From Malacoraja senta (taxonomy: Eukaryota): a stretch of 64,000 nt of DNA. The stretch is taken from the NCBI GenBank assembly GCA_038087875.1, contig CM075995.1:8062001-8126000 (forward strand), written 5' to 3'. Within the stretch, counting starts at the first letter, position 1. Each line of letters begins with the position of its first letter. This document shows, in pieces, positions 332 through 31,482 of this stretch. The notes beneath the pieces are model-generated. The model made no database searches. It saw only the letters and a list, made by a program, of their open reading frames with translations, and was not told where the DNA came from. A program made the translations under genes and the position numbers.

Positions 332-334
332 TAA

Positions 335-578: not shown

Positions 579-579
579 G

Positions 580-668: not shown

Positions 669-700
669 CTACCCTTTCTTTTCCTCTGCGCCGACAGACG

Positions 701-1076: not shown

Positions 1077-1123
1077 GTAGGTGGGCGATTCACCGTGTTT
1101 CTGCCGAATGTGCGATAACCTGG

Positions 1124-1297: not shown

Positions 1298-4200
1298 CTA
1301 GACCAAGTGGGACCCTTTGGGTCCCTGTCACACGGGAGGCCTGGTCCCCCAATGCAAACCGTTCCCCAACGCAATATTCCACCACTCACCCATAGCCCCC
1401 ACGGGAGGCCTGGTCCCCCAACACAACCTGTTCCCCTTTCTCCAACACAACCCGTTCCCCCAACGCAATATTCCAGCACTCACCCATAGCCGACAACTGC
1501 GCAGGGGCTGCTTATTTCGCCTTATTCAGACTCCCTCGTTTTTAAACTTTAAAAAAAAATGCATTTGCACTTGCTAGCTAGCAGAACAGTGTACTGTGAC
1601 TTTAAAAAAAATGCATTTGCACTTGCTAGCTGGCAGAACTCAGTGTACTTGGATAGCAACAATGTTGCGAGCAGGGCTAAGCACAGGGAATAAGCGAAAG
1701 ACAGTTATTTTTTTCCCATGTTTTTGGAGATTTTTGAACATTTTCATAAATAACTCGAGCAATAATGCTTGAAATTTTCAGAAAATGCGATTTTTGACTT
1801 CACGGCGTAAATCTCTATCGGAATATGTAAAATTTGCACTGTTAGTGCGTCGTGTTTTCGAGGAGATGTGAAACGCAAACGAACATCACACACACAAATA
1901 AATACACATCCAAGATCAGAGTTTTATAAGTATACTAGACCAAGGGTGACCTGTTGGGTCCCGTCCCCTCAATGCACGATTGCGAGGGGGGGGGGCGGCC
2001 TGCAGCATCACACACACACTAACCACCCCCCCCCACACACACACACAAACACTAACCACCCCCTTGATATTATATTAATATTATTCATTGGCTCCTTTTA
2101 CCCCATCCCCGCCCTATCTTGAGGGGCAGAGAGAGTGGGGCAGAGAGGGAGAGGGGGGGAGAGAGGGGGGGTGGAGGGAGAGGGGGGAGGCTGAGAGGAG
2201 GGGGGAGAGGAGATGGGGAGAGGAGATGGGGAGAGGAGAGGAGAGGGGGAGGGAGGTGGAGAGAGGGGGTGGGGGAGAAGGGGAGGGGGAGGGAGAGGGA
2301 GAGGGGAGGAGGGAGAGGAGGTAGGAGAGACAGAGAGGGGGAAGTGGAGAGGAGGGGGTAGTGGAGGGGGGAGATGAAGGGAGGAGGAGGTGGGAGGGGG
2401 AGAGAGAGCGAGAGGGCGGACTTGAATTCGGTAAGCGGGTGGCGGGCCAGGGCAGCTGCCGTGACCTCTCTGGACCTCGCGGCATCTCTGAAGCCCTCGG
2501 AAGCCCAACCAAATTACTGCATGTTCAGCGGCTTCAATCCAGAGCCCTGGGGTGAGGAGGGCGGGGCGCTATGGACGGCCGGCCGAGTGAGTTACGTGGG
2601 TGGGGGGGGGGGTGGTGTTACATAACTCACAGCTCGTGGAAAACAGTAGCCAGCAAGCTGATAGTTGAAAACTACACGCAGCTGGCCGCGAGGAGCAGAG
2701 CCATTGTGAAGTCATCAACTCGTTAGCTTCAGCTCATTAACTTCAAAAAAGATCTTAGATTTGTGACTTGGGAAATAATTAATCAAATTTTCAGATGAGG
2801 CAATGTTTGAGATCATGAGGTAAATCTCTACCGGAATATGTAAAAATTTCACCGTTAGCGCGTCAGGTTGTCGAGGAGATGTGAATCACAGAAAAAGACA
2901 CAAGCAAACAAACAAATACATAAACATCCAAGATCAGAGTTTTAACATAATACTAGACCAAGTGCAGACCCGTTGGGTCTGGTCCCCGAAAGTGCTTGAC
3001 ACCCCGGGGTGTTGTTCCCGAACGTGCTTGAGACCCCGGGGTGAAAATCGTGGGAAAAAAAGATGGCGTCGTTTTTGGAAAAAATCGGAGAAAATCGGAG
3101 AAAAAAAGATGGCGTCGTTTTCAGAGAAAATCGGTGAAAAAAAGATGGCGTCGTTTTCGGAGAAAATCTGAGACAATCGGAGAAAATCACATGGGGGTGG
3201 GGGTGCAGACCCGTTGGGTCTGGTCCCCGAAAGTGCTTGACACCCCGGGGTGTTGTTCCCGAACGTGCTTGAGACCCCGGGGTGAAAATCGTGGAAAAAA
3301 AAGATGGCGTCATTTTCGGAGAAAATCGGCGAAAAGAAGATGGCGTCGTTTTCGGAGAAAATCGGCGAAAAAAAGATGGCGTCGTTTTCGGAGAAAATCG
3401 GAGACAATCATATGCGGGTGGGGGGGGGGGTGGATTTTATTTTAAAACGTGTACATAAACAGGGCCGAATTTAATCAGGAGTGGCTATTCGTAAAGATAA
3501 ATGTCATCTCTTTGGAAATGGTAAAAAATATGGGCCTTTCCGCGCGCTGTGTGGGCCAGGGGCGGTATCAAAGGCGGCGTACGGACGTACAGACGTACAG
3601 ACGTACAGACGGACGGCAGCCAGAGAGTTTTAAAAGTATACTAGACAAGTGCAGACCCGTTGGGTCTGGTCCCCGAAAGTGCTTGACACCCCGGGGTGTT
3701 GTTCCCGAACGTGCTTGACACCCCGGGGTGTTGTTCCAGAACGTGCTTGCGACCCTTGGTTGAAAATCGTGGACAGAAAAGATGGCGTCATTTTCGGAAA
3801 AAATCGGAGAAAATCGGCGAAAAAAAGATGGCGTCGTTTTCTGAAAAAAATCGGCGAAAAAAAGATGGCGTCGTTTTCGGAGAAAACCGGAGACAATCGG
3901 AGAAAATCACATGGGGGTGGGGGTGCAGACCCGTTGGGTGTGGTCCCCGAAAGTGCTTGACACCCCGGGGTGTTGTTCCCGAACGTGATTCAGACCCCGG
4001 GGTGAAAATCCGCGAAAAAAAGATGGCGTCGTTTTCGGAAAAAATCGGAGAAAATCGTCGAAAAAAAGATGGCGTCGCTTTCGGAGAAAATCGGCGAAAA
4101 AAAGATGGTGTCGTTTTCGGAGAAAATCGGAGACAATCGGAGAAAATCACATGGGGGTGGGGGGGGGGTGGATTTTATTAAAAAACGTGTACATAAACAG

Positions 4201-7200
4201 GACCGAATTTAATCAGGAGTGGCTATTCGTAAAGATAAATATCATCTCTTTGAAAATGGTAAAAAATATGGGCCTTTCCGCTCGCTGTGTGGGCCAGGGG
4301 CGGTATCAAAGGCGGCGTACAGGTCAAGCAGAACGTTGGACGTACAGACAAGCAGAACGTTGGACGTACAGACGTACAGACGGACGACAGCCAGAGAGTT
4401 TTAAAAGTATACTAGACCAAGTGCAGACCCGTTGGGTCTGGACACCGAACGTGCGTTTGCGGGGGGGAGGGGCTGTTGCGTCACACTAACCACCCCCTTT
4501 CCTCCAATGCACGGAATCCTCCATCCACAAACACACACACTCATCACACCCCTTGATATTACATTAATTTTAAAATTTGATTCTTTTATCCCATCTCCAC
4601 CCTATCCACTGATGAATAGCCCTCACCTCTCAGGTGCTTTTGGAGGGGGGGTGGCAGAGAGACAAAATTTAATGTTAAAAATTTCAAGAGGAATGGAGGA
4701 GGGGGGAGATAAAGGTGGGGAGAGAGGAGGGGGAGAGAGGAGAGTGGTGGAGAGAGGAAGGAGACGATGGGGGAGAAAGGTGAATGGGGTGTTTGGAACG
4801 GGCGTGCATGAGTCGAGCCGCGGGCTGTGAAGAGAGAAGGGCAGAGAGAGAGAGAGAGATGGGAGAGACAGAGAGACTGGTACACAAAAAAAAGCTGGAG
4901 AAACACAGCGGGTGCAGCAGCATCTATGGAGCGAATGAAATAGGCAAAGCTTTGGGCCGAAGCCCATCCTCAGGTTTTTTTTTAACCTGAAACGTTTCCT
5001 ATTTCCTTCGATCCATAGATGCTGCTGCACCCGCTGATGTTATACCGCTTTTTTTTGTGTATCTTTGATTTTCCAGCATCTGCAGTTCCGTGTTAAAGAC
5101 AGAGAGACTGTTGGTGGGCTGTTTTCCCAACGCGCGTTTGCGGGAGGGGGGGGGGTGCTGCGGCATCCACAGCACTAACCACCTCCCGCAAACACACTCG
5201 GGGGGAAGGGGGAGAGGAAGACGGGGTGTGGAGAGAAGAAGAGAGGGGGAGGGAGGGTAGAGGGCGAGGAGGAAAGGGGAGAGATTGGTGAGGTTGAAGA
5301 GAGTAGGGTGGGGGAGAGGGATGGGGAGGAGAGTGGTGAGTTAGGAGGAGAGCGTGGAGGGCAGGAAGGGGGAGAGGGGGGGAGGGGATGAGGGGAAGGG
5401 GAGAGGAGTAGGGGGAAGAGAGGGAGAGAGGGAGGGGGAGGGAGAGAGGTGGAGGGAGAGGGGAAGAGTTGGGAGTGAGTGGTTGCGGGGAGTGGTGCAA
5501 GAGAGAGTGGAAGGGGGTGGGGGGGAGATGGGGGTGAAGAGGGGGGTGGAGGGGTAAGAGAGGGTGTGGGAGGGGAGGGATGAGAGAGGGGGCAGAGTGG
5601 GGAGGGAGAGTGGAAGTAGGAGGGGTAGGGGCAGTCGGGGTGGGGAGAGAAGAGGAGAGGGGGAGGAGGAAAGGGGAGAGATTGGTGAGTGAGAAGAGAG
5701 CAGGGTGGGGGAGAGGGAGGGGGAGGAGAGTGGGGAGTGGTAGGAGAGCGGGGAGGGCAGGAATGGGGGAGGAGATGTTAGAGATGGAGAGAGGGGATGA
5801 GGGGAAGGGGAGAGGAGTAGGGGGAAGAGAGGGAGGGGAGGGAGGGGGAGAGGAGAGAGGAGGGGGAGGGAGAGTGGAAGTAAGAGGGGTAGGGACAGTC
5901 CATCTGTTCCCCATTCCCTATCACCCCCAATCATCTTTCTCTATTCCCACACACGTGGCGACGCCCTTCGACACAGGCTGCGGGGGTGGGGGGGGAGGGG
6001 CTGGGGCTGCTGCCAAGGCATATGTAAATGGATCCATTCCGATTGGACATCTGTGACCATTGTGCATTGTGACATCACACAACGGAATCTTTACTAACAT
6101 TCTACGGCTGAGCTGTTTTTTAAAACATTTTGAAATGTTTGGTTTGGGGGGGGGGGGAGAGGTATTTTATTTTAAAAAGCGTACGTAAACACGACCAAAT
6201 TTAATCAGGATCGTCTATTCGTAAAGATAAACGTAACCTCTTTAGAAACGGTAAAAAAATCGGCGTTTCCGCGCGCTGCGCGGGCGCGGGGCGGTATCAA
6301 AGGCGGGACAGGTCAAGCAGAACGTTGGACGTACAGACGTACAGACGTACAGACGTACGGCAGCCAGAGAGTTTTAAAAGTATACTAGACCAAGTGCAGA
6401 CCCGTTGGGTCTGGACACCGAACGTGCGTTTGGGGCGGGGGGCTGTGACGTCACACTAACCACCCGTTGGGTCTGTACCTCCAAAGCAGGGTTGCGGGGT
6501 GTGAATCTGGCACCCACAAACACACACACTCATCACACCCCTTGATATTATATTAATATTTTAATTTTCTTCTTTTATTCCATCTCCACCCTATCCACTG
6601 ACGAATAGCCCTCACCTCTCAGGTACGTCTCGAGGGGGGGGGTGGTGCAGAGAGAGAAAATTTAATGTTAGAAAAAAAAATTGTGAGGTGGGGGAGGAGG
6701 AGGGTTGAGAGGATGGAGGGTGAGGAAGGTGGGGAGAGAGGAGGGTGAGAGAGGAGAGGGGTGGAGAGAGGAAGAAGAGGATGGGGAGAGAGGTGAAGGG
6801 GGTTGGTTGGAGCAGGCGTGCATGAGTTGAGTCGCGGGCTGTGAAGAGAGATGGGCAGAGAGAGAGAGAGAGAGGGGAGAGACAGATAGACTGGTACACA
6901 CAATAAAACTCGAGAAACACTGCGGGTGCAGCAGGATCTATGGAGTGAAGGAAATAGGCAATGCTTTTGGCGGAAACCCATCCTCAGACGGGTTTTCACG
7001 AAACGTTGTCTATTTCTTTTGATACATAGGAGCTGAAGCATTTTTTTGTGTACCTTTGATTTTCAAGCATCTGCAGTTCTGTCTTAAAGACAGAGAGACT
7101 GTTGGCGGGCTGTTTTCCCAACGCGCGTTTGCGGGACGGGGGGGGGCTGCGGCATCACACTCACACTAACCACCCCCCAAACACAGGCGGGGGGAGGGGT

Positions 7201-10200
7201 GGAGAGGAAGACGGGGTAGGGAGAGAAGAGGGGAGAGGGAGACGGGGTGGGGAGAGAAGAGGAGAGGGGGAGGGAGGGGAGAAGGGGAGGAGGAAAGGGG
7301 AGAAATTGGTGAGGGAGAAGAGAGCAGTGTGGCGGAGAGGGAGAGGGAGGCGAGTGGTAGGAGAGCGGGGAGGGCAGGAAGGGGGGAGAGGGGGGAGGGG
7401 ATGTTAGAGGTGGAGAGAGGGGATGAGGGGAAGGGGAGAGGAGTAGGGGGAAGAGAGGGAGAGAAGGAGGGGGGAGGGATAGAGGTGGGGAGGGAGAGTG
7501 GAAGAGTGGGGAGTGAGAGAGAAGGGAGGGGGGAGAGGGGTGGTGGAGGGGGTTGTGGAGGGAGATGGGGATGGGTTTGGGAGTTAAGTGGAAGAATGGG
7601 GAGAGAGATGGAGAGGTGTAGGGGGAGTGGTGGAAGTGGGAGAGAGGGAGGGGGAGAGGTGTAGGGGGAGTGGTTGAAGAGGGATAGCGGGGTAGGGGGA
7701 AGGGGACGGGGTGAGAGAGGGAAGGGGGATGTGGGAGAGAGTAATGGGGGTGGGAGGAGGAGGGGGATGAGAGGGAGAGGGGTGAGGAGAAGGGGATGGA
7801 GAGGGGGAGGAGAGAGGGTGGGTAAGGCGAGGAGAAGGGTAGAGAGGTGTGGGGGAGGGTGGAGGGTGGCGACGGGGTTGGGAGAGAAGAGGGGAGGGGG
7901 GGAGGGGGAAGAGGGAGACGGGGTGTGGAGAGAAGAGGGGAGGGAGGGGAGGGAGGAGAGAGGGGGAGGAGGAAAGGGGAGAGATTGGTGAGGGAGAAGA
8001 GAGCAGGGTGGGGGAGAGGGACGGGGAGGAGAGTGGGGAGTGGGAGGAGAGCGGGGAGGGCAGGAAGGGGGGAGGGGGGAGGGGATGTTAGAGGTGGAGA
8101 GAGGGGATGAGGGGAAGGGGAGAGGAGTAGGGGGAAGAGAGGGAGAGAGGGAGGGGGGAGGGAGAGGGGAAGAGTGGTGAGTGAGGGGCAGAGGGGTAGC
8201 AGGGAGTGGTGCAAGAGAGAGGGGAAGGGGTGGGGGGAGATGGGGGTGAAGAGGGGTGGTGGAGGGGGAAGAGAGGGTGTGGGAAGGGAGGGAGGGGGAG
8301 AGGAGAGAGGGGGAAGAGTGGGGAGGGAGAGTTGAAGTAGGAGGGGTAGGGACAGTCCATCTGTTACCCATTCCCTATCACCCCCAATCCTCTTTCTCTA
8401 TTGCCACACACGTGACGACGCCCTTCGACACAGGCTGCGGGGGTGGGGGGCAGGGGCTGGGGCTGGGGCTGCTGCCAAGGCATATGTAAACGGATTCATT
8501 CCGATTGGACATCTTTGAGCATTGGGCATTGTGACATCACAAAACGGAACCTTCATTAACATTCTATTGCTGAGAGCTGTTTTTTTAAACATTTTGAAAT
8601 GTCCCCATTCCCTATCCCCCCCACACACGTGGCGACGCCCTGCGACACAGGCTGTGGGGTTGGGGGGGAGGGGCTGGGGCTGGGGCTGCTGCCAAGGCAT
8701 ATCTAAATGAATCCATTCCCATTGGACATCTGTTAGCATCGGGCATTGTGACATCACACAACGGAATCTTTACTAACATTCTATGGCTGAGCTGTTTTTT
8801 TAAACATTTTGAAATGTTTGGTTTTGGGGGGGAGAGAGGTATTTTATTTTAAAAAGCGTACCTAAACACGACCAAATTTAATCGGGATCGTCTATTCGTG
8901 AAGATAAACGTAACCTCTTTAGAAACGGTAAAAAATATCGGCGTTTCCGCGCGCCGCGCGGGCGCAGGGCGGTATCAAAGGCGGGACAAGTCAAGCAGAA
9001 CGTTGGACGTACAGACATACAGAACGTTGGACGTACAGACGTACAGACGGACGACAGCCAGAGAGTTTTAAAAGTATACTAGACCAAGTGCAGACCCGTT
9101 GGGTCTGGTCCCCGAAAGTGCTTGACACCCCGGGGTGTTGTTCCCGAACGTGCTTCAGACCCCTGGGTGAAAATCTGCGAAAAAAAGATGGCGTCGTTTT
9201 CGGAAAAAAATCGGAGAAAATCGGCAAAAAAAAGATGGCGTCGTTTTCGGAGAAAATCGGCGAAAAAAAGATGGCGTCGTTTTCGGAGAAAATCGGAGAC
9301 AATCGGAGAAAATCACATGGGGGTGGGGGGGGTGGATTTTATTAAAAAACGTGTACATAAACAGGACCGAATTTAATCAGGAGTGGCTATTCGTAAAGAT
9401 AAATGTCATCTCTTTGGAAATGCTAAAAAATATGGGCCTTTCCGCGCGCCGTGTGGGCCAGGGGCGGTATCAAAGGCGGCATTGGGACGTACAGACGTAC
9501 GACAGCCAGAGAGTTTTAAAAGTATATAGACTAGACCAAGTGCAGACCCGTTGGGTCTGGACACCGAACGTGCGTTTGCGGGTGGGGGGGGGGGGGTGCT
9601 GTGACGTCACAGTAACCACCCCCTTTGCTCCAAAGCACGGTTGCGGGGTGGGAATCTGGCACCCACGAACACACACACTCATAACAACCCTTGATATTAT
9701 CTTAATTTTTTTATTTGCTTCTTTTATCCCATCTCCACCCTATCCACTGACGAATAGCCCTCACCTCTCAGGTGCGTCTAGAGGGGGGGGGGGCAGAGAG
9801 TGCAAATTTAATGTTAGAATTAAAAAAATTTGAAGAGGGGGAGGAGGAGGGTTGAGAGGAAGGGGGGAGAGAGGAAGGGGTGCGAGGAAGGGGGATAGAG
9901 AGGTGGGTGTGGAGAAGTAAGGAGAGGATGTTGGAGATAGGTGAAGGGGGGTGTTTTGAGCTGGTGTTCATGAGTTAAGCTGCGGGCTGTGAAGAGAGAA
10001 GGGCAGAGAGAGAGAGAGGGGAGAGACAGAGAGACTGGTACACCCAAAAAAGGTGGTGAAATTCAGCGGGTGCAGCAGCATCTATGGAGCGAAGGAAATA
10101 GGCAATGTTTGTGGCTGAAACCCATCTTCAGACGTGTTTTGTTATGAAACATTGCCTATTTCCTTTGATCCAAAAATGCTGCTGCACCCGCTGAGTTTAT

Positions 10201-13200
10201 ACTTCATTTTTTTGTTTACCTTGTGTTTGGGGGGGGGGTGGCTGCGGCTGAAGCATCACACTCACACTAACCACCCCCCAAACACACAGGCGGGGGGAGT
10301 GGGGGAGAGGGAGACGGGGTTGGGGAGAGGAGGGGAGGGGGAGAGAAGGAGACGGGGTGGGGAGAGAAGAGGGGAGGGAGGGGAGGGAAGAGGGGGACGG
10401 AGGGGAGAGGGGGATGAGGAAAGGGGAGAGATTGGGGAAGGAGAGGAGATCAGGGTGGGTGAGAGGGAGGGTGAGGAGAGTTTGGAGTGGGAGGAGAGCG
10501 GGGAGGGCAGGAAGGGGGGAGAGGGGGGGAGGGGATGAGGGGAAGGGGAGAGGTGTAGGGGGGAGAGAGGGAGAGAGGGAGGGTGGAGGGAGAGAGGTGG
10601 GGAGGGAGAGGGGAAGAGTGGGGAGTGCAGACCAAGTGCAGACCCGTTGGGTCTGGACACCGAACGTGTGTTTGGGGCGGGGGGCTGTGACGTCACACTA
10701 ACCACCCGTTGGGTCTGTACCTCCAAAGCAGGGTTGCGGGGTGTGAATCTGGCACTCACAAACACACACACTCATCACACCCCTTGATATTATATTAATA
10801 TTTTAAAGACAGAGAGACTGTTGGCGGGCTGTTTTCCCAACGCGCGTTTGCGGGAGGGGGGGTGGGCTGCGGCATCCCACTCACACTAACCACCCCCCAA
10901 ACTCACACTAACCACCCCCAAACACACTTGGGGGGATGGGGGGGGAAGGAAGACGGGGTGGGGAGAGAAGAGGGGAGAGGGAGACGGGGTGGGGAGAGAA
11001 GAGGAGAGGGAGAGGGAGGGTGGAGAGGAAGGGGGAGAGAGGAGAGGGGTGGAGAGAGGAAAGAGAGGATGGGGGAGAGTGGTGAAGGGGGGGGGTTGGA
11101 GCGGGCGTGCATGAGTCGAGTCGCGGGCTGTGAGGGAGAGAAGGGAGGGAGAGAAGGGAGAGAGTGAAAGGAGAGAGAGAAGTGGGAGAGAGAGAAGGGA
11201 GAGAGAGAGAGAGAGAAGGGAGGGAGAATGGAGAGAGAGAGATAAGGGAGAGAGAGAAGGGAGAGAGAGAGAAGGGAGAGAGAGAAAGGTGAGGGAGAGA
11301 GAGAGACCAAGTGCAGACCCGTTGGGTCTGGACACCGAACGTGCGTTTGGGGCGGGGGGCTGTGACGTCACACTAACCACCCGTTGGGTCTGTACCTCCA
11401 AAGCAGGGTTGCGGGGTGTGAATCTGGCACCCACAAACACACACACTCATCACACCCCTTGATATTATATTAATATTTTAATTTTCTTCTTTTATTCCAT
11501 CTCCACCCTATCCACTGACGAATAGCCCTCACCTCTCAGGTACGTCTCGAAGGGGGGGTGGTGCAGAGAGAGAAAATTTAATGTTAGAAAAAAAAATTGT
11601 GAGGTGGGGAGGAGGAGGGTTGAGAGGAAGGGGGGTGAGGAAGGTGGGGAGAGAGGAGGGTGAGAGAGGAGAGGGGTGGAGAGAGGAAGAGGATGGGGAG
11701 AGAGGTGAAGGGGGTGGGTTGGAGCAGGCGTGCATGAGTTGAGTCGCGGGCTGTGAAGAGAGAAGGGCAGAGAGAGAGAGAGGGGAGAGACAGATAGACT
11801 GGTACACACAATAAAACTCGAGAAACACTGCGGGTGCAGCAGCATCTATGGAGTGAAGGAAATAGGCAATGCTTTTGGCGGAAACCCATCCTCAGACGGG
11901 TTTTCACGAAACGTTGTCTATTTCTTTTGATACATAGATGCTGCTGCACCCGCTGAGGTTATGAAGCATTTTTTTTGTGTACCTTTGATTTTCAAGCATC
12001 TGCAGTTCTGTCTTAAAGACAGAGAGACTGTTGGCGGGCTGTTTTCCCAACGCGCGTTTGCGGGAGGGGGGGGGGGCTGCGGCATCACACTCACACTAAC
12101 CACCCCCCAAACACAGGCGGGGGGAGGGTTGGAGAGGAAGACGGGGTGGGGAGAGAAGAGGGGAGAGGGAGACGGGGTGGGGAGAGAAGAGGAGAGGGGG
12201 AGGAGGAAAGGGGAGAAATTGGTGAGGGAGAAGAGAGCAGGGTGGGGGAGAGGGAGGGGGAGGAGAGTGGTAGGAGAGCGGGGAGGGCAGGAAGGGGGGA
12301 GAGGGGGGGAGGGGATGTTAGAGGTGGAGAGAGGGGATGAGGGGAAGGGGAGAGGAGTAGGGGGAAGAGAGGGAGAGAAGGAGGGGGGAGGGATAGAGGT
12401 GGGGGAGGGAGATTGGAAGAGTGGGGAGAGAGAATGGAGGGGGGAGAGGGGTGGGGGAGGGGGTTGTGGAGGGAGATGGGGATGGGTTTGGGAGTTAAGT
12501 GGAAGAATGGGGAGGGAGATGGAGAGGTGTAGGGGGAGTGGTGGAAGTGGGAGAGAGTGAGGGGGAGAGGTGTAGGGGGAGTGGTTGAAGAGGGATAGCG
12601 GGGTAGGGGAAGGGGACGGGGTGAGAGAGGGAAGGGGGATGTGGGAGAGATTAATGGGGGTGGGAGGAGGAGGGGGATGAGAGGGAGAGGGGTGAGGAGA
12701 AGGGGATGGAGAGGGGAGGAGAGAGGGGTGGGTAAGGCGAGGAGAAGGGTAGAGAGGTGTGGGGGAGGGTGGAGGGTGGCGACGGGGTTGGGAGAGAAGA
12801 GGGGGGGAAGGGGGAGAGGGAGACAGGGTGGGGAGAGAAGAGGGGAGGGATGGGAGGGAGGAGAGAGGGGGAGGAGGAAAGGGGAGAGATTGGTGAGGGA
12901 GAAGAGAGCAGGGTGGGGGGGAGGGACGCGGAGGAGAGTGGGGAGTGGGAGGAGAGCGGGGAGGGCAGGAAGGGGGGAGGGGGGGAGGGGATGTTAGAGG
13001 TGGAGAGAGGGGATGAGGGGAAGGGGAGAGTAGTAGGGGGAAGAGAGGGAGGGGGGTGGGATAGAGGTGGGGGAGGGAGAGGGGAAGAGTGGTGAGTGAG
13101 GGGCAGAGGGGTAGCGGGGAGTGGTGCAAGAGAGAGGGGAAGGGGGTAGGGGGGAGATGGGGGTGAAGAGGGGTGGTGGAGGGGGAAAAGAGGGTTTGGG

Positions 13201-17924: not shown

Positions 17925-20476
17925 CTAGACCAAGTGCAGACCCGTTGGGTCTGGTCCCGAAAGTGCTTGACACCCCAGGGTGTTGTTCCCGAACGTGCTT
18001 CAGACCCTGGGGTGGAAAATGTGATGGAAAAAAGATGGCGTCGTTTTCGGAAAAAATCGGAGAAAATCGGCGAAAAAAAGATGGCGTCGTTTTCGGAGAA
18101 AATCGGCGAAAAAAAGATGGCGTCGTTTTCGGTGAAAATGGGAGAAAATCAAATTGGGGTTGGTGGGGGGATGGATGACACCCCGGGGTGTTGTTCCCGA
18201 ACGTGATTCAGACCCCTGGGTGAAAATGGGCGAAAAAAAGATGGCGTCATTTTTGGAAAAAATCGGGGGGAAAAAGATGGCGTCGTTTTCGGAGAAATTG
18301 GAGACAATCGGAGAAAATCACATTGGGGTTGGGGGGGGGATGTATTTTATTAAAAAACATGTACATAAACAGGACAGAATTTAATCAGGAGTGGCTATTC
18401 GTAAAGATAAATGTAATCTCTTTGGAAATGGCGAAAAACGTGGGCCTTTCCGCGCGCCGCGTGGGCCAGGGGCCGTATCAAAGGCGGCGCGGCAAAGTCA
18501 AGCAGGCCGTCGGACGTACAGACGGACGACACACACAGAGTTTTAAAAGTATACTAGACCAAGTGCAGACCCGTTGGGTCTGGTCCCCGAAAGTGCTTGA
18601 CACCCCGGGGTGTTGTTACCGAACGTGCTTCAGACCGCGGGGTGAAAATGTGCTGTAAAAAAGATGGCGTAGTTTTAAAAAAAAAATTGGAGGGATTCTG
18701 GGAAAAAAAGATGGCGTCGTTTTCTGCGAAATTCCGCGAAAAAAAGATGGCGTCGTTGTCTTTGAAAATCGGAGACAATCGGAGAAAATCACATTGGGGT
18801 TGGGGGGGGGATGGATGACACCCCGGGGTGTTGTTCCCGAACGTGCTTCAGACCCGTTGGTGAAAATCGACGAAAAAAAGATGGCGTCGTTTTTTGAAAA
18901 ATTCGGGAAAAAAAAGATGGCGTCGTTTTCGGGAGAAAATCGGAGACATTCGGAGAAAATCACATTTGGGTTGGGGGGGGGATGGATTTTATTATAAAAC
19001 GTGTACATAAACAGGACAGAATTTAATCAGGAGTGGCTATTCGTAAAGATAAATGTCATCTCTTTGGAAATGGCGAAAAAGGTGGGCCTTTCCGCGCGCC
19101 GTGTGGGCCAGGGGCCGTATCAAAGGCGGCGCGGCAAAGTCAAGCAGGCCGTCGGACGTACAGACGGACGACCACACACAGAGTTTTAAAAGTATACTAG
19201 ACCAAGTGCAGACCCGTTGGGTCTGGTCCCCGAAAGTGCTTGACACGCAGGGGTGTTGTTCCCGAACGTGATTCAAACCCCGGTGGTGAAAATCGGTTGA
19301 AAAAAGATGGCGTAGTTTTAAAAAATAATTGGAGGGATTCTGGGAAAAAAAGATGGCGTCGTTTTCTGCGAAATTCGGCGAAAAAAAGATGGCGTCGTTG
19401 TCTTTGAAAATCGGAGACAATCGGAAAAAAATCACATTGGGGTTGGGGGGGGATGGATGACACCCCGGGGTGTTGTTCCCGAACGTGCTTCAGACCCGTT
19501 GGTGAAAATCGACGAAAAAAAGATGGCGTCGTTTTTTGAAAAATTCGGGAAAAAAAAGATGGCGTCGTTTTCGGAGAAAATCGGAGACATTCGGAGAAAA
19601 TCACATTTGGGTTGGGGGGGGGATGGATTTTATTAAAAAACGTGTACATAAACAGGACAGAATTTAATCAGGAGTGGCTATTCGTAAAGATAAATGTCAT
19701 CTCTTTTGAAATGGCGAAAAAGGTGGGCCTTCCCGCGCGCCGTGTGGGCCGGGGGCCGTATCAAAGGCGGCGCGGCAAAGTCAAGCAGGCCGTCGGACGT
19801 ACAGACGGACGACACACACAGAGTTTTAAAAGTATACTAGACCAAGTGCAGACCCGTTGGGTCTGGTCCCCGAAAGTGCTTGACACGCAGGGGTGTTGTT
19901 CCCGAACGTGATTCAGACCCCGGTGGTGAAAATCGGTTGAAAAAAGATGGCGTAGTTTTAAAAAATAATTGGAGGGATTCTGGGAAAAAAAGATGGCGTC
20001 GTTTTCTGCGAAATTCGGCGAAAAAAATATGGCGTCGTTGTCTTTGAAAATCGGAGACAATCGGAGAAAATCACATTGGGGTTGGGGGGGGGATGGATGA
20101 CACCCCGGGGTGTTGTTCCCGAACGTGCTTCAGACCCGTTGGTGAAAATCGACGAAAAAAAGATGGCGTCGTTTTTTGAAAAATTCGGGGAAAAAAAGAT
20201 GGCGTCGTTTTCGGAGAAAATCGGAGACATTCGGAGAAAATCACATTTGGGTTGGGGGGGGATGGATTTTATTAAAAAAACGTGTACATAAACAGGACAG
20301 AATTTAATCAGGATTGGCTATTCGTAAAGATAAATGTCATCTCTTTTGAAATGGCGAAAAAGGTGGGCCTTTCCGCGCGCCGTGTGGGCCGGGGGCCGTA
20401 TCAAAGGCGGCGCGGCAAAGTCAAGCAGGCCGTCGGACGTACAGACGGACGACACACACAGAGTTTTAAAAGTATA
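17925..20476 (-). repeat. Block of four short (type A, 629-643 bp) Helitron units with an internal ~33-bp minisatellite
   Basis: Junction spacing 629, 643, 640, 640 bp. Repeated AAAAAAGATGGCGTCGTTTTCGGAGAAAATCGG. Same type at 2953-4411 and 9079-9530. Confidence 0.85.
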
Positions 20477-22005
20477 CTAGACCAAGTGCAGACCCGTTGG
20501 GTCTGGACACCGAACGTGTGTTTGCGGAGGGGGGGGCTGTTGCGTCACACTAACCACCCCCTTTCCTCCAAAGCATGGAATACGGCACCCACAAACACAC
20601 ACACTCATCACACCCCTAGATATTAATTTAATTTTTTAATTTGCTTCTTTTATCCCATCTCCACCCTATCCACTGACGAATAGCCCTCACCTCTCAGGTG
20701 CGTCTAGAGGGGGGGGCAGAGAGAGAAAATTTAATGTTAGGAAAAAAAATTGAAGTGGGGAGGAGGAGGGTGGAGAGGAAGGGGGAGAGAGGAGAGGGGT
20801 GGAGAGAGGAAGGAGAGGTTGGGGGCGAGGTGAAGGGGGGGGTTGGAGCAGGAGTGCATGAGTCGAGCCGCGGGCTGTGAAGAGAGAAGGGCAGAGAGAG
20901 AGAGAGAGAGAGAGAGGGGAGAGACAGATAGACTGGTATACAAAAAAAAGCTCAAGAAACACAGTGGGTGCAGCAGCATCTATGGAGCGAAGGGAAATAG
21001 GCAACGCTTTGGGCCGAAGCCCATCCTCAGACGGGTTTTCTCCTGAAACGTTGCCTATTTCCTTAGATCCATAGATTTTGATGCACCCGCTGAGTTTCTC
21101 CATTTTTTTTTTGTGTACCTTCGATTTTCCAGTATCTGCAGTTCCTTCTTAAATACAGAGAGACTGTTTGCGGGCTGTTTCCCCAACGCGCGTTTGCGGG
21201 GTGCGGGGGGGGCGGTGGGGGGGTGCGGAATCACACTCACACTAACCGCCCCCCAAACAAATTTGAAGAGGGGGAGGAGGAGGGTGGAGAGGAAGGGGGG
21301 AGAGGGAGGGTGGGGGAGGATGGTGAGAGAGGAGGGGGAGAGAGGAGAGGGTGGAGAGAGGAAGGAGAGGATGTGGGAGATAGGTCAAGGGGGGGGTTGA
21401 GCGGGTGTTCATGAGTTGAGCTGCGGGCTGTGAAGAGAGAAGGGCAGAGAGAGAGAGAGAGGGGAGAGACAGAGAGACTGGTACACAAAAAAAAGCTGGA
21501 GAAACACAGCGGGTGCAGCAGCATCTATGGAGCGAAGGAAATAGGCAACGCTTTGGGCCGAAGCCCATCCTCGGACTGGTTTTCTACCGAAACGTTGCCT
21601 ATTTCCTTCGATCCATAGATGCTGCTGCACCCGCTGATGATATACAGGATTTTTTGTGTACCTTCGATTTTCCAGCATCTGCAGTTCCGTCTTAAAGACA
21701 GAGAGACTGTTGGCGGGCTGTTTTCCCAACCGCGCGTTTGCAGGAGGACGGGGGTGAGCTGCGGCATCACACTCACACTAACCACCCCCCAAACTCACAC
21801 TAAACCACCCCCAAACACACTCGGGGGGATGGGGTGAGGGGGGGAGAGGAAGACGGGAGAGGAAGACGGGGTGGGGAGAGAAGAGGAGAGGGGGAGGGAG
21901 GGGAGAGAGGAAGGGGGAGAGAGGAGAGAGAGGATGGGGAGAGAGGTGAAGGGGGGGGTTGGAGCGTGCGTGCATGAGTCGAGCCGCGGGCTGTGAAGAG
22001 AGAAG

Positions 22006-22049
<44 letters not shown>

Positions 22050-23359
22050 CAGAGAGACTGGTACACAAAAAAAAAGCTGGAGAAACACAGCGGGTGCAGC
22101 AGCATCTATGGAGCGAAGGAAATAGGCAACGCTTTGGGCCGAAGCCCATCCTCAAAATGGTTTTCTCCCGAAACGTTGCCTATTTCCTTAGATCCATAGA
22201 TGCTGCTGAACCCGCTGATGATATACAGGTTTTTTTTGTGTACCTTCGATTTTCCAGCATCTGCACTTCCGTCTTAAAGACAGAGAGACTGTTGGCGGGC
22301 TGTTTTCCCAACGCGCGTTTGCGGGAGGGGGGGAGGGGGCTGCGGCATCACACGCACACTGACCACCCCCCAAACTCACACTAACCACCCCAAACACACT
22401 CGGGGGGAGGGGGGAGAGGAAGACGGGGTGGGGAGAGAAGAGGGGAGAGGGAGACGGGGTGGAGAGAGAAGAGGAGAGGGGGAGGGAGGGAGAGGGGGAA
22501 GAGGAAAGGGGAGAGATTGGGGAGGGAGAGGAGATCAGGGTGGGTGAGAGGGAGGGGGAGGAGAGTGGGGAGTGGGAGGAGAGCGGGGAGGGCAGGAAGG
22601 GGGAGAGGGGGGGAGGCGATGAGGGGAAGGAGAGGAGTAGGGGGAAGAGAGGGAGAGGGAGGGTGGAGGGGAAGAGGTGGGGAGGGAGAGGGGAAGAGTG
22701 GAGGGGGTGAGGGGCAGAGGGGTAGCGGGAGTGGTGCAAGAGAGGGGAAGGGGGTGGGGGGAGATGGGGGTGAAGAGGGGTGGAGGAGGGGGAAGAGAGG
22801 GTGTGGGAGGGGAGGGAGGGGGAGAGGAGAGAGGGGGGAGAGTGTGGAGGGAGAGTTGAAGTAGGAGGGGTAGGGACAGTCCATCTGTTACCCATTCCCT
22901 ATCACCCCAATCCTCTTTCTCTATTCCCACACATGTGACGACGCCCTTCGACACAGGCTGCGGTGGTGGGGGGGAGGGGCTGGGGCTGGGGCTGCTGCAA
23001 AGGCATATGTAAATGGATCCATTCCGATTGGACATCTGTGACCATTGTGCATTGTGACATCACACAACGGAATCTTTACTAACATTCTACGGCTGAGCTG
23101 TTTTTTTAATCATTTTGAAATGTTTGGTTTGGGGGGGGGAGAGAGGTATTTTATTTTAAAAATCGTACATAAACACGACCAAATTTAATCAGGACCATCT
23201 ATTCGTAAAGATAAACGTAACCTCTTTAGAAACGGTAAAAAACTTTGGCGTTTCCGCGCGCCGCACGGGCGCGGGGTGGTATCAAAGGCAGCGCGGCACA
23301 AGTCAAGCAGAACGTCGGACGTACAGACGGACGACAGCCAGAGAGTTTTATATAATAGA

Positions 23360-26300
23360 CTAGACCAAGTGCAGACCCGTTGGGTCTGGACACCGGACGT
23401 GCGTTTGCGGGTGGGGGGGGGTGCTGTGGCGTCACAGTAACCACCCCCTTTGCTCAAAAGCACGGTTGCGGGGTGGGAATCTGGCACCCACGAACACACA
23501 CACTCATAACAACCCTTGATATTATCTTAATTTTTTAATTTGCTTCTTTTATCCCATCTCCACCCTATCCACTGACGAATAGCCCTCGGGGGAGTGGGGG
23601 AGAGGGAGACGGGGTTGGGGAGAGGAGGGGAGGGGGAGAGAAGGAGACGGGGTGGGGAGAGAAGAGGGAGGGAGGGGGAGGGAAGAGGGGGACGGAGGGG
23701 AGAGGGGGAGGAGGAAAGGGGAGAGATTGGGGAAGGAGAGGAGATCAGGGTGGGTGAGAGGGAGGGTGAGGAGAGTTTGGAGTGGGAGGAGGGCGGGGAG
23801 GGCAGGAAGGGGGGAGAGGGGGGAGGGGGGAGGGGATGAGGGGATGAGGGGAAGGGGAGAGGAGTAGGGGGAAGAGAGGGAGAGAGGGAGGGTGGAGGGG
23901 AGAGAGGTGGGGAGGGAGAGGGGAAGAGTGGGGAGTGCAGACCCGTTGGGTCTGGATACCGAACGTGCGTTTGGGGCGGGGGCTGTGACGTCACACTAAC
24001 CACCCGTTGGGTCTGTACCTCCAAAGCAGGGTTGCGGGGTGTGAATCTGGCACCCACAAACACACACACTCATCACACCCCTTGATATTATATTAATATT
24101 TTAAAGACAGAGAGACTGTTGGCGGGCTGTTTTCCCAACGCGCGTTTGCGGGAGGGGGGGTGGGCTGCGGCATCACACTCACACTAACCACCCCCCAAAC
24201 ACAGGCGGGGGAGGGTGGAGAGGAAGACGTGGTGGGGAGAGAAGAGGGGAGAGGGAGATGGGGTGGGGAGAGAAGAGGAGAGGGGGAGGGAGGGGAGAGG
24301 GGGAAGAGGAAAGGGGAGAGATTGGGGACGGAGAGGAGATCAGGGTGGGTGAGAGGGAGGGGGAGGATAGTGGGGAGTGGGAGGAGAGCAGGGAGGGCAG
24401 GGAGGGGGGGAGGGGATGAGGGGAAGGGGAGAGGAGTAGGGGGAAGAGAGGGAGAGAGGGAGGGGGAGGGAGAGGGGTACAGTGGGGAGTGAGGGGCAGA
24501 GGGGTAACGGGGAGTGGTGCAAGAGAGAGGGGAAGGGGGTAGGGGGGAGATGGGGGTGAAGAGGGGTGGTGGAGGGGGAAGAGAGGGTGTGGGAGGGGAG
24601 GGAGGGCTAGAGCAGAGAGGGGGAAGAGTGGGGAGGGAGAGTTGAAGTAGGAGGGGTAGGGACAGTCCATCTGTTTCCCATTCCCTATCACCCCCAATCC
24701 TCTTTATTGCCACACACGTGACGACGCCCTTCAACACAGGCTGTGGGGGTGGTGGGGAGGGGCTGGGGCTGGTGCTGCAGTCATATGTAAACGGATTCAT
24801 TTTGATTGGATATCTTTGAGCATTGGGCATTGTGACATCACAAAACGGAACCTTCATTAACATTCTATTGCTGAGAGCTGTTTTTTTTAAACATTTTGAA
24901 ATTTCCCCATTCCCTATCCCCCCCCACACACGTGGCGACGCCCTTCGACACAGGCTTTGGGGTTGGGGGGAGGGGCTGGGGCTGTGGGTGCTGCCAAGGC
25001 ATATGTAAACGGATTCATTTCGATTTGTCACACGTGTCGCAGGGCGTCGCCACGTGTGTGGGGGTGATAGGGAATGGGGACATTTCAAAATGTTAAACAA
25101 AAATAGCTCTCAGCAATAGAATGTTAATGAAGGTTCCGTTTTGTGATGTCACAATGCCCAATCCTGCGGGGGTTGGGGGGAGGGGCCGGGGCTTGGGTCG
25201 CCGCAAAGGCATATGTAAATGGATCCATTCCGATTGGACATCTGTGACATTGTGCATTGTGACATCACACACGGAATCTTTAGTAACATTCTATGGCTGA
25301 GCTGTTTTTTTTAAACATTTTGAAGTATTTGGTTTGGGGGGGGGAGAGGTATTTTATTTAAAAAACGTGTACATAAACAGGTCAGAATTTAATCAGGAGT
25401 GGGTTTATGTAAAGATAAACGTAACCTCTTTAGAAACGGTAAAAAATATCGGCCTTTCCGCGCGCCGCGTGGGCCAGGGGCCGTATCAAAAGGCCGTGCG
25501 GCAAAGTCAAGCAGGCCGTCGGACGTACAGACGGACGACACACACAGAGTTTTATATAATAACTAGACCAAGTGCAGACCCGTTGGGTCTGGACACCGGA
25601 CGTGCGTTTGCGGGTGGGGGGGGTGCTGTGGCGTCACAGTAACCACCCCCTTTGCTCAAAAGCACGGTTGCGGGGTGGGAATCTGGCACCCACGAACACA
25701 CACACTCATAACAACCCTTGATATTATCTTAATTTTTTAATTTGCTTCTTTTATCCCATCTCCACCCTATCCACTGACGAATAGCCCTCGCCTCTCAGGT
25801 GCGTCTAGAGGGGGGGGGGGGGCAGAGAGTGAAAATTTAATGTTAGAATTAAAAAAATTTGAAGAGGGGGAGGGGGAGGGTGGAGAGGAAGGGGGGAGAG
25901 AGGAAGGGGTGCGAGGAAGGGGGATAGAGAGGTGGGTGTGGAGAGAGTAAGGAGAGGATATTGGAGATAGGTGAAGGGGGGTGTTTTGAGCTGGTGTTCA
26001 TGAGTTAAGCTGCGGGCTGTGAAGAGAGAAGGGCAGAGAGAGAGAGAGAGGGAGAGACAGAGAGACTGGTACACTCAAAAAAGGTGGTGAAATTCAGCGG
26101 GTGCAGCCGCGTCTATGGAGCGAAGGAAATAGGCAATGTTTGTGGCTGAAACCCATCTTCAGACGTGTTTTGTTATGAAACATTGCCTATTTCCTTCGAT
26201 CCAAAGATGCTGCTGCACCCGCTGAGTTTATACTTCATTTTTTTGTTTACCTTGCGTTTGGGGGGGGGGGCTGCGGCTGCAGCATCACACTCACACTAAC

Positions 26301-29300
26301 CACCCCCCAAACACACAGGCGGGGGGAGTGGGGGAGAGGGAGACGGGGTTGGGGAGAGGAGGGGAGGGGGAGAGAAGGAGACGGGGTGGGGAGAGAAGAG
26401 GGGAGGGAGGGGAGGGAGGGAGGGAAGAGGGGGACGGAGGGGAGAGGGGGAGGAGGAAAGGGGAGAGATTGGGGAAGGAGAGGAGATCAGGGTGGGTGAG
26501 AGGGAGGGTGAGGAGAGTTTGGAGTGGGAGGAGGGCGGGGAGGGCAGGAAGGGGGGAGGGGATGGAGGAGGGGAGGGGACGAGGGGGGGAGGGGATGAGG
26601 GGATGAGGGGAAGGGGAGAGGAGTAGGGGGAAGAGAGGGAGAGAGGGAGGGTGGAGGGAGAGAGGTGGGGAGGGAGAGGGGAAGAGTGGGGAGTGCAGAC
26701 CAAGTGCAGACCCGTTGGGTCTGGACACCGAACGTGCGTTTGGGGCGGGGGGCTGTGACGTCACACTAACCACCCGTTGGGTCTGTACCTCCAAAGCAGG
26801 GTTGCGGGGTGTGAATCTGGCACCCACAAACACACACACTCATCACACCCCTTGATATTATATTAATATTTTAAAGACAGAGAGACTGTTGGCGGGCTGT
26901 TTTCCCAACGCGCGTTTGCGGGAGGGGGGGGTGGGCTGCGGCATCACACTCACACTAACCACCCCCCAAACACAGGCGGGGGAGGGTGGAGAGGAAGACG
27001 TGGTGGGGAGAGAAGAGGGGAGAGGGAGATGGGGTGGGGAGAGAAGAGGAGAGGGGGAGGGAGGGGAGGGGGAAGAGGAAAGGGGAGAGATTGGGGAGGG
27101 AGAGGAGATCAGGGTGGGTGAGAGGGAGGGGGAGGAGAGTGGGGAGTGGGAGGAGAGCAGGGAGGGGGGGGAGGGGATGAGGGGAAGGGGAGAGGAGTAG
27201 GGGAAGAGAGGGAGAGAGGGAGGGGGAGGGAGAGGGGTACAGTGGGGAGTGAGGGGCAGAGGGGTAACGGGGAGTGGTGCAAGAGAAAGGGGAAGGGGGT
27301 AGGGGGGAGATGGGGGGTGAAGAGGGTGGAGGAGGGGGAAGAGAGGGTGTGGGAGGGGGAGGAGGGGAAGGAGAGAGGGGGAAGAGTGGGGAGGGGGGTG
27401 TAGTAGGAAAGGGGTAGGGACAGTCCATCTGTTTCCCATTCCCTATCACCCCCAATCCTCTTTCTCTATTGCCACACACGTGACGACGCCCTTCGACACA
27501 GGCTTTGGGGTTGGGGGGGAGGGGCTTGGGCTGTGGGTGCTGCCAAGGCATATGTAAACGGATTCATTTCGATTTGTCACACGTGTCGCAGGGCGTCGCC
27601 ACGTGTGTGGGGGTGATAGGGAATGGGGACATTTCAAAATGTTAAACAAACAGCTCTCAGCAATAGAATGTTAATGAAGGTTCCGTTTTGTGATGTCACA
27701 ATGCCCAATGCTGCGGGGGTTGGGGGGGAGGGGCCGGGGCTTGGGTCGCCGCAAAGGCATATGTAAATGGATCCATTCCGATTGGACATCTGTGACCATT
27801 GTGCATTGTGACATCACACACGGAATCTTTAGTGACATTCTATGGCTGAGCTGTTTTTTTAAACATTTTGAAGTATTTGGTTTTGGGGGGGGGAGAGGTA
27901 TTTTATTTTAAAAACGTGTACATAAACAGGTGAGAATTTAATCAGGAGTGGGTTTATGTAAAGATAAACGTAACTCTTTAGAAACGGTAAAAAATATCGG
28001 CCTTTCCGCGCGCCGCGTGGGCCAGGGGCCGTATCAAAGGCCGCGCGGCAAAGTCAAGCAGGCCGTCGGACGTACAGACGGACGACACACACAGAGTTTT
28101 ATATAATAACTAGACCAAGTGCAGACCCGTTGGGTCTGGACACCGAACGTGCGTTTGCGGGTGGGGGGGGTGCTGTGGCGTCACAGTAACCACCCCCTTT
28201 GCTCCAAAGCACGGTTGTGGGGTGGGAATCTGGCACCCACGAACACACACACTCATAACAACCCTTGATATTATCTTAATTTTTTAATTTGCTTCTTTTA
28301 TCCCATCTCCACCCTATCCACTGACGAATAGCCCTCACCTCTCAGGTGCGTCTAGAGGGGGGGGGGCAGAGAGTGAAAATTTAATGTTAGAATTAAAAAA
28401 AATTGAAGAATGGGAGGGAGGAGGGTGGAGAGGAAGGGGGGAGGAAGGGGTGCGAGGAAGGGGGATAGAGAGGTGGGTGTGGAGAGAGGAAGGAGAGGAT
28501 GTTGGAGATAGGTGAAGGGGGGTGTTTTGAGCTTGTGTTCATGGAGTTAAGCTGCGGGCTGTGAAGAGAGAAGGGCAGAGAGAGAGAGAGAGAGAGAGGG
28601 GAGAGACAGAGAGACTGGTACACTCAAAAAAGGTGGTGAAATTCAGCGGGTACAGCCGTGTCTATGGAGCGAAGGAAATAGGCAATGTTTGTGGCTGAAA
28701 CCCATCTTCAGACGTGTTTTGTTATGAAACATTGCCTATTTCCTTCGATCCAAAGATGCTGCTGCACCCGCTGAGTTTATACTTCATTTTTTTGTTTACC
28801 TTGCGTTTGGGGGGGGGGGGGGGCTGCGGCTGCAGCATCACACTCACACTAACCACCCCCCAAACACACAGCGGGGGAGTGGGGGAGAGGGAGACGGGGT
28901 TGGGGAGAGGAGGGAGGGGGAGAGAAGGAGACGGGGTGGGGAGAGAAGAGGGGAGGGAGGGGAGGGAAGAGGGGGACGGAGGGGAGAGGGGGAGGAGGAA
29001 AGGGGAGAGATTGGGGAAGGAGAGGAGATCAGGGTGGGTGAGAGGGAGGGTGAGGAGAGTTTGGAGTGGGAGGAGGGCGGGGAGGGCAGGAAGGGGGGAG
29101 GGGGGGAGGGGATGAGGGGGGAGGGGATGAGGGGATGAGGGGAGGAGGATAGGGGGAAGAGAGGGATAGAGGGAGCGTGGAGGGAGAGAGGTGGGGAGGG
29201 AGAGGGGACGAGTGGGGAGTGCAGACCAAGTGCAGACCCGTTGGGTCTGGACACCGAACGTGCGTTTGGGGCGGGGGGCTGTGACGTCACACTAACCACC

Positions 29301-31482
29301 CGTTGGGTCTGTACCTCCAAAGCAGGGTTGCGGGGTGTGAATCTGGCACCCACAAACACACACACTCATCACACCCCTTGATATTATATTAATATTTTAA
29401 AGACAGAGAGACTGTTGGCGGGCTGTTTTCCCAACGCGCGTTTGCGGGAGGGGGGGGTGGGCTGCGGCATCACACTCACACTAACCACCCCCCAAACACA
29501 GGCGGGGGAGGGTGGAGAGGAAGACGTGGTGGGGAGAGAAGAGGGGAGAGGGAGATGGGGTGGGGAGAGAAGAGGAGAGGGGGAGGAGGGGAGAGGGGGA
29601 AGAGAAAGGGGAGAGATTGGGGAGGGAGAGGAGATCAGGGTGGGTGAGAGGGAGGGGGAGGAGAGTGGGAGTGGGAGGAGAGCAGGGAGGGCAGGGAGGG
29701 GGGGAGGGGATGAGGGGAAGGGGAGAGGAGTAGGGGGAAGAGAGGGAGAGAGGGAGGGGGAGGGAGAGGGGTACAGTGGGGAGTGAGGGGCAGAGGGGTA
29801 ACGGGGAGTGGTGCAAGAGAGAGGGGAAGGGGGTAGGGGGGAGATGGGGGTGAAGAGGGGTGGTGGAGGGAAGAGAGGGTGTGGGAGGGGAGGGATGGGT
29901 AGAGCAAGAGGGGGAAGAGTGGGGAGGGAGAGTTGAAGTAGGAGGGGGTAGGGACAGTCCATCTGTTTCCCATTCCCTATCACCCCCATCCTCTTTCTCT
30001 ATTGCCACACACGTGACGACGCCCTTCGACACAGGCTGTGGGGGTGGGGGGAGGGGCTGGGGCTGGTGCTGCAGGCATGTGTAAACGGATTCATTCTGAT
30101 TGGACATCTTTGAGCATTGGGCATTGTGACATCACAAAACGGAACCTTCATTAACATTCTATTGCTGAGAGCTGTTTTTTTTTAACATTTTGAAATTTCC
30201 CCATTCCCTATCCCCCCCACACACGTGGCGACGCCCTTCGACACAGGCTTTGGGGTTGGGGGGGAGGGGCTTGGGCTGTGGGTGCTGCCAAGGCATATGT
30301 AAACGGATTCATTCCGATTTGTCACACGTGTCGCAGGGCGTCGCCACGTGTGTGGGGGTGATAGGGAATGGGGACATTTCAAAATGTTAAACAAACAGCT
30401 CTCAGCAATAGAATGTTAATGAAGGTTCCGTTTTGTGATGTCACAATGCCCAATGCTGCGGGGGTTGGGGGGAGGGGCCGGGGCTTGGGTCGCCGCAAAG
30501 GCATATGTAAATGGATCCATTCCGATTGGACATCTGTGACCATTGTGCATTGTGACATCACACATGGAATCTTTAGTAACATTCTATGGCTGAGCTGTTT
30601 TTTTAAACATTTTGAAGTATTTGGTTTGGGGGGGGAGAGGTATTTTATTTTAAAAACGTGTACTTAAACAGGTCAGAATTTAATCAGGAGTGGGTTTATG
30701 TAAAGATAAACGTAACCTCTTTAGAAACGGTTAAAAAATATTCGGCCTTTCCGCGCGCCGCGTGGGCGTCGGGCCGTATCAAAGGCCGCGCGGCAAAGTC
30801 AAGCAGGCCGTCGGACGTACAGACGGACGACACACACAGAGTTTTATATAATAACTAGACCAAGTGCAGACCCGTTGGGTCTGGACACCGGACGTGCGTT
30901 TGCGGGTGTGGGGGGGGCGCTGTGGCGTCACAGTAACCACCCCCTTTGCTCAAAAGCACGGTTGCGGGGTGGGAATCTGGCACCCACGAACACACACACT
31001 CATAACAACCCTTGATATTATCTTAATTTTTTAATTTGCTTCTTTTATCCCATCTCCACCCTATCCACTGACGAATAGCCCTCGCCTCTCAGGTGCGTCT
31101 AGAGGGGGGGGGCCAGAGAGTGAAAATTTAATGTTAGAATTAAAAAAATTGAAGAGGGGGAGGAGGAGGGTGGAGAGGAAGGGGGGAGAGAGTAAGGGGT
31201 GCGAGGAAGGGGGATAGAGAGGTGGGTGTGGAGAGAGTAAGGAGAGGATATTGGAGATAGGTGAAGGGGGGTGTTTTGAGCTGGTGTTCATGAGTTAAGC
31301 TGCGGGCTGTGAAGAGAGAAGGGCAGAGAGAGAGAGAGAGGGGAGAGACAGAGAGACTGGGTACACTCAAAAAAGGTGGTGAAATTCAGCGGGTGCAGCC
31401 GCGTCTATGGAGCGAAGGAAATAGGCAATGTTTGTGGCTGAAACCCATCTTCAGACGTGTTTTGTTATGAAACATTGCCTAT
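23360..31482 (-). repeat. Block of long (type B, ~2.2-2.75 kb) composite Helitron units with G/A-rich tracts
   Basis: Junction spacing 2203, 2547, 2745 bp, with a fourth unit running into the gap. Module order is largely shared. Confidence 0.8.

Follow-up and report, generated by a model that had tools for sequence, protein, structure and literature searches.

A head-to-tail array of non-autonomous Helitrons in the skate Malacoraja senta, likely formed by repeated insertion into resident 5' ends

The window analysed here, a stretch of 64,000 nucleotides from the skate Malacoraja senta (GenBank assembly GCA_038087875.1, contig CM075995.1, positions 8,062,001 to 8,126,000), contains a head-to-tail array of Helitrons. 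This array consists of stacked canonical, non-autonomous Helitrons and very probably grew mostly as new copies inserted, one after another, at a point four bases into the 5' end of a copy already in place, because the start of the older copy matches the landing motif preferred by the family. Such self-targeted insertion would mean that a head-to-tail arrangement of Helitrons does not require a rolling-circle origin. An earlier note on this DNA had proposed a rolling-circle concatemer, repeated end-targeted insertion, or both, followed by unequal exchange. The option of end-targeted insertion has been borne out by the clipped joins, by the spacing of a TAAA motif and by the head of a paralogous locus, and the best reading is that the array is neither a rolling-circle concatemer nor a homogenised satellite. 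A slash marks insertion points and joins below.

A scan of the window confirmed 18 Helitron 3' ends, each a hairpin followed by CTAG, between positions 1298 and 30858 and exclusively on the minus strand; no terminal motif was found on its plus strand or downstream of the assembly gap, and shuffling gave at most one in 200 shuffles against the 18 real ends. All 18 conform to the CTRR that follows a short hairpin at the 3' end of canonical Helitrons. The described 7-bp stem about 8 nt before CTAG is perfect, with a 3-nt loop and a distance of 7-8 nt, in 17 of the 18 ends, and has decayed in the one at 1935. Folding recovered the stems themselves, with a stability not above that of shuffled sequences (z -1.4, -0.8 and 0.1). 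The ends (TC...CTAG) and the resolved insertion site (A/T) are not those of Helitron2 or Helentron elements, which have a 5' hairpin, asymmetric terminal inverted repeats and T/T insertion, although no dedicated search for inverted repeats was made. Also as noted before, the 17 joins have no host spacer and the final unit runs into a gap of 200 N at 31483. Cut at CTAG, the units fall into a short type A (452-771 bp) and a long type B (1973-4904 bp); this division holds except for the two tail units of 637 and 1018 bp, which belong to other subfamilies and show only slight similarity to the remaining units. The units differ mutually by 1-25%. No remnant of a RepHel transposase was found in the window, and the assignment of the units as canonical non-autonomous Helitrons is supported. 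One correction concerns the joins. Only three of the 17 read CTAG/TC, and only these three units keep their 5' TC; the other 14 read CTAG/TA or CTAG/TT, with the initial TCTA of the following unit missing, and have TAAA at +9 in all 14 cases.

In the 1.94-Gb genome, the exact 29-nt 3' motif of the family has 4484 occurrences, some isolated and others clustered. The first 100 matches formed 72 clusters, 51 of which hold one match each, so that the solo copies sought genome-wide do exist. We used these 72 loci as flank sample. Their 142 3' ends, classed automatically as host or join with seven reassigned by eye, comprise 94 that run into another Helitron, 47 that run into host DNA and one internal end, and a T follows 141 of the 142. 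Eight of the 47 host-flanked ends abut TA microsatellites, which, as a side observation on these loci of chromosome C1, constitute a second preferred target class. The remaining 39 host sites have TAAA at +8 (16 sites) or +9 (15 sites) in 31 cases, with none at +7 or +10; 10,000 shuffles gave a mean of 2.6 and a maximum of 10, and the AT-matched expectation is 1.9. With automatic classing and all sites kept, 30 of 46 sites are in this register. The same register is present at 75 of the 94 Helitron-Helitron joins, and T-N6/7-TAAA follows 4421 of 5800 3' ends genome-wide (joins and host sites pooled). The Helitron family therefore lands just before T-N6/7-TAAA. The intact 5' end, TCTA-TATACTTTTAAAA and its variants, contains this very motif at TCTA/TATAC; as its TAAA spacing points at TCTA/T, the element would be its own preferred target. 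Landing in host (TCTA)n microsatellites was considered and rejected, since none of the 47 host 3' flanks begins with such a tract and the empty sites have none.

The clipping of the joins bears directly on the rolling-circle origin, according to which a circle copied over several rounds was inserted, perhaps with a second nick at TCTA/T that clips the joins. Among the 1653 bodies of one 5' type counted genome-wide, the only type for which clipped and intact joins were counted, 945 directly follow CTAG, 567 follow TCTA and 33 follow CTAG-TCTA (the last counted with a pattern one base shorter than the other 5'-type counts). About 97% of the joins of this type thus lack the first four bases, unlike a precise circle join, which would retain them. 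Helraiser circles do have precise CTAG/TC joins (PMC4778049, accessible text), and the 33 intact joins, together with CTAG/TCTA at the three window joins mentioned, are what a concatemer predicts, as are near-identical neighbours such as units U11-U13 and the tandem autonomous copies on contigs C2570 and C2217. However, CTAG/TC joins would be no proof of rolling circles either, given that a copy inserting between two TCTA repeats, or at a pre-existing join, would produce them as well, and internal heads with several TCTA are present on C4719. Against a concatemer also stand the mixed subfamilies and sizes (452-4904 bp) of neighbouring units, which are not copies of a single monomer, and the paralogue described below, in which U3 can be seen to have entered an existing head. 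Moreover, most sampled free 5' ends retain TC or TCTA: the 69 non-join ends of the 72 loci have TCTA in 41 cases, TC in seven, TCTA nearby in 11 and none of these in 10. With TC or TCTA ahead of the clip point in 59 of the 69, as in canonical Helitrons, the clipped form is disfavoured as the true 5' end. Finally, a concatemer leaves unexplained that host sites share the register of the joins. As the main cause, the rolling-circle concatemer is already largely refuted, and we consider it very unlikely. The order of hairpin types at joins (nine CAGACCC-to-GGGACCC, all clipped at +9, and four in reverse, of which two have a spacer and an intact head, one is probably non-contiguous and one is clipped) is suggestive only.

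The paralogous locus also speaks for self-targeted insertion. The array is antisense to a 2-hydroxyacid dehydrogenase gene and occupies the intron following an exon that has five copies in the genome; it is located inside a repeat resembling a short interspersed nuclear element (SINE). Neither the other half of this SINE nor Helitron DNA was found past the gap in the window; this half is present at the array head in L153, L156 and L157. Paralogue L153 (C19:7.94 Mb) is 97% identical to window positions 36-2957 and contains U1 and U2 only. Its head reads ...CCAAA/(TCTA)5 TATTATG followed by the other SINE half, i.e. the SINE is split at A/T with no duplication, and in the window the CTAG of U3 meets U2 exactly at the base following the TCTA tract of L153. 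It is likely that L153 preserves the earlier state of the locus. A/T sites were resolved at the window locus through L153 and at four more sites through paralogous repeats, two others being ambiguous; together with the T after nearly all sampled 3' ends, these sites uphold the earlier proposal of A/T insertion and, at the level of sequence, indicate that the target is not duplicated. The paralogues at C19:8.158 Mb, C19:8.26 Mb and on C5723 are deleted across the stack and hence uninformative. As a side observation, C19:7.92-8.26 Mb and the unplaced contigs C633, C1091 and C5723 form a recent cluster of 2-hydroxyacid dehydrogenase gene copies that are 96-99% identical.

The units themselves can be compared with copies elsewhere, for which about 1 Mb of fetched sequence out of 1.9 Gb was available. 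Neighbouring units represent different dispersed subfamilies. Outside copies are closer than neighbours for U5, U9, U10, U15 and U17, and about equally close for U6, U7 and U18. U11-U13 and U3/U4 are mutually closer than to outside copies, U11-U13 being 97.5-99.1% identical among themselves and 95-96% to outside copies, with substitutions only. U8 and U14 have no full-length match inside or outside, and U16 has one outside match only. These data weigh on the view that the array is a complex satellite, in which a small founder stack was enlarged mainly by unequal exchange and module swapping. Such a history would fit the periodicity of two blocks, one at 17.6-20.5 kb (94.5%) and the other at 23.6-31.5 kb (95-97%), the closeness of U11-U13 and the composite B units with broken ends inside. 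However, monomers that are closest to each other are clear only for U11-U13, and also seen for U3/U4, while most testable units match copies elsewhere equally well or better even though so small a part of the genome was sampled. Furthermore, the same composite B type occurs on C4719, C2217 and C2 in other orders, and the head tract at the window site is longer in the long-array state. Thus, unequal exchange, which the earlier note had invoked for later amplification, accounts for U11-U13 at most; it adds to insertion and does not replace it, and a satellite origin of the array as a whole is unlikely. Local duplication is likely real, judging from these similarities, and probably minor.

An assembly artefact, with repeats collapsed or mis-ordered at a contig end, is extremely unlikely as explanation of the array. 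It would be in line with the array stopping at the gap, with the remaining gene being on unplaced contigs, and with C633 and C1091 being 99% alike. Against it, the units diverge by up to a quarter, the first two units are confirmed by the 97% paralogue, and the same joins are found at hundreds of places within chromosome-scale contigs. Errors in the number and order of units may nevertheless persist. The later exons and the same half of the SINE are found on C633 and C1091, where type B and A units stand behind heads of 20 and 24 TCTA; the portion of array on C1091 measures about 10 kb. The sequence missing in the gap is probably represented by these two contigs. The gap is not bridged, because these contigs show no near-identity overlap with the window end (92-95% at best), and the lack of later exons past the gap in the window's gene copy suggests a mis-sized gap or a mis-join.

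Based on these results, we envisage that the RepHel transposase of an autonomous partner would select targets by their distance from TAAA. A newcomer would split the head of the resident copy, strand its TCTA on the outside and supply a fresh target, and a later nick at the outer TC would take the (TCTA)n tract along to new sites. The oldest unit would then be the one at the tail, and a few units would have been duplicated locally afterwards. Consistent with this scheme, TCTA repeats accumulate at array heads, and at four sites the tract was identified by eye as inserted DNA relative to paralogous repeats, one of these being a solo copy with two repeats; among the 31 sites tested for an empty copy, two more were ambiguous and most had none. 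An identical TCT-TCTA variant was seen at many loci, in line with its being carried along by the element, with a possible contribution from slippage.

A partner of this kind is present in the genome. A search of the genome for the family gave 112 Rep matches, and five of six fetched regions contain, in a similar array, a RepHel open reading frame (ORF) flanked by the 5' and 3' ends that the window units have, so that the search for a RepHel with these ends succeeded; the sixth region holds a different ORF. The ORFs encode 1706-1745 amino acids counted from the ATG. That on C3619 has Helitron Rep, PIF1 and 2B domains (PF14214, PF05970 and PF21530) and matches Helraiser with E 8e-210; its C-terminus is apparently frameshifted, while the copy on C4719 (G000:C4719) reaches a normal helicase end. 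The autonomous partner thus combines a Rep domain (HUH, Y2) with a Pif1 helicase between the ends of the family, and type B units share approximately its first and last kilobase. Its protein is 95% identical to LOC129716088 of Leucoraja erinacea and 73% to LOC144591268 of Rhinoraja longicauda, RepHel proteins that are uncharacterised and unannotated; this similarity agrees with a skate as host.

Several additional features of the autonomous elements were observed. On C4719, C3619, C2570, C2217 and C2 (L051-L055, L059-L067), the element has a first hairpin and CTAG followed by ATGGACTG. The distance from ATGGACTG to a second 3' end is 1-1.6 kb at four of the five loci, and on C2 the next end is much further away; the two-ended element is either an inherited 3' read-through or a nested composite. 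Autonomous copies are arranged in tandem on C2570 and C2217. In the transposase at L054:2578-7815, about 400 residues at the N-terminus are rich in charged repeats. Among named transposases, those of the snail Physella acuta rank next after the skate proteins (63-64%), most others being 39-46% identical, and a horizontal link between the skate and snail elements is possible on the basis of this similarity. Head-to-head inverted pairs of 5' ends occur at L093, G000:C1:49382440-49382668 and G000:C1:72931846-72932066.

A number of observations weigh against repeated self-targeted insertion or restrict its scope. The length of the head tract does not correlate with unit number over 31 loci (rho 0.22, p 0.24), and solo copies reach 12-25 repeats; the tract was therefore rejected as a per-locus counter of insertions, and carry-over or slippage must be added. 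The genome-wide count includes 141 of 1653 bodies preceded by neither CTAG nor TCTA, and the sampled heads include the 10 without TC or TCTA. An older subfamily seems to be clipped at TC/T, so that the A of TCTA is not invariant. Precise loss of units is an alternative to L153 being an earlier state, and the direction from two units to many is inferred. In addition, the flank sample covers the initial 52 Mb of one chromosome and was chosen by a single exact motif, and the four public runs, with short contigs only, have none that spans the array.

The features of the window are listed in Table 1. Two side observations concern its repeats: positions 33920-39518 contain a 1660-bp block made up of host repeat fragments, which is repeated in tandem about 3.4 times at 89-93% identity and lacks Helitron ends, and type B units such as U14 contain fragments, probably captured, of an abundant host repeat also found past the gap.

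Table 1. Features of the 64,000-nt window
Feature	Position	Strand	Remarks
Host 2-hydroxyacid dehydrogenase coding exon	701..1078	+	PF00389, E 6e-11
SINE-like dispersed repeat, first half, split by first Helitron	1128..1297	+	3' flank CTAG/TAACCTACAAAC
U1, tail unit, GGGACCC hairpin subfamily, 5' end clipped	1298..1934	-	99% to paralogue copy
U2, other subfamily, clipped in window	1935..2952	-	Intact (TCTA)5 head in paralogue
U3/U2 join CTAG/TATTATGTTAAAA	2940..2985	-	U3 3' end exactly at TCTA/T of paralogue head
U3, U4, short type A, internal minisatellites	2953..4411	-	
U5, U6, long type B	4412..9078	-	Ends in common with autonomous element
U7, type A, TCTA head intact	9079..9530	-	Join CTAG/TCTATATAC at 9531
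U8, U9, composite type B, broken 3' ends inside	9531..17924	-	U9: CTAG/TC join
U10-U13, type A, ~640 bp	17925..20476	-	U11-U13 likely local duplication
U14-U17, type B composites	20477..30854	-	U15, U17: 98.7-98.8% to copies on other contigs
U18, 3' part only, truncated by gap	30855..31482	-	
Assembly gap	31483..31682	.	Followed in the window by neither a Helitron terminus nor another exon of the gene copy

Tandem Helitron arrays have reportedly been read as rolling-circle products, for instance by Xiong in 2016. As far as the accessible text of the cited papers goes, those in plants and bats have been interpreted in this way (PMC5876387, PMC12001565) and serve as genomic support for rolling-circle transposition of Helitrons (PMC5876387). 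They resemble the skate array in being head-to-tail without host spacer, and differ from it in that the skate joins are clipped by about 4 nt, the subfamilies are mixed and an earlier state is likely kept in a paralogue. Helitron1 and Helibat1/Helraiser (PMC4778049, PDB 7lcc) share with the skate family the 5'-TC, the hairpin and CTAG-3', the A/T target without duplication and a RepHel. Helraiser favours sites with AT-rich DNA on the 3' side of the insertion (PMC4778049); the accessible text describes a diffuse bias and no spaced motif, whereas the skate family has a fixed T-N6/7-TAAA that matches its own end. Such a motif could already be visible in the Helraiser logo or supplements. Insertion of one Helitron into another has been proposed for FoHeli of Fusarium, where the leftmost 5' nick carries along multiple 5' termini and a three-copy tandem is attributable to either insertion or rolling circles (PMC5148889). 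FoHeli is Helitron2-like, however, with 31-85 nt duplicated, few cases and no target rule in the accessible text, while in the skate family the joins at a single register number in the hundreds and a 4-nt unit has become a microsatellite. McGurk and Barbash 2018 (PMC5932611) described how double insertion by target preference gives rise to transposable element tandems that can later expand; these retain the host target-site duplication between copies, whereas the skate array has none and the element itself provides the target. Self-insertion (PMC5148889) and target-driven tandems (PMC5932611) mean that the idea is known, and what is added here is the base-precise rule, the scale and the paralogue as control. 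In the literature searched, represented by mostly open-access text (PMC13286980, PMC3789558, PMC13085455, PMC3342881, PMC4344730), we found no study of a Helitron array in cartilaginous fish, no spaced target motif or spacing rule, no TCTA tract, no clipped joins and no paralogue with a likely earlier state.

In summary, Helitron target choice, so far only loosely described, is in this family tied to a defined motif, and the family allows insertion to be discriminated from concatemer formation with base precision, with paralogues in which one array is likely kept in both its early and its late form. For annotation, tools that depend on a 5'-TC would overlook or merge most units. The family also offers a way in which a tetranucleotide microsatellite can arise. 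We tentatively suggest that Helitron transposases in general may read their target by the spaced TAAA of their own left end, in which case self-targeting would be built in and the arrays of bats and plants may share this origin. If true, this would imply arrays that form without rolling-circle multimers, a landing pad that renews itself, and mobile (TCTA)n microsatellites carried by the element.

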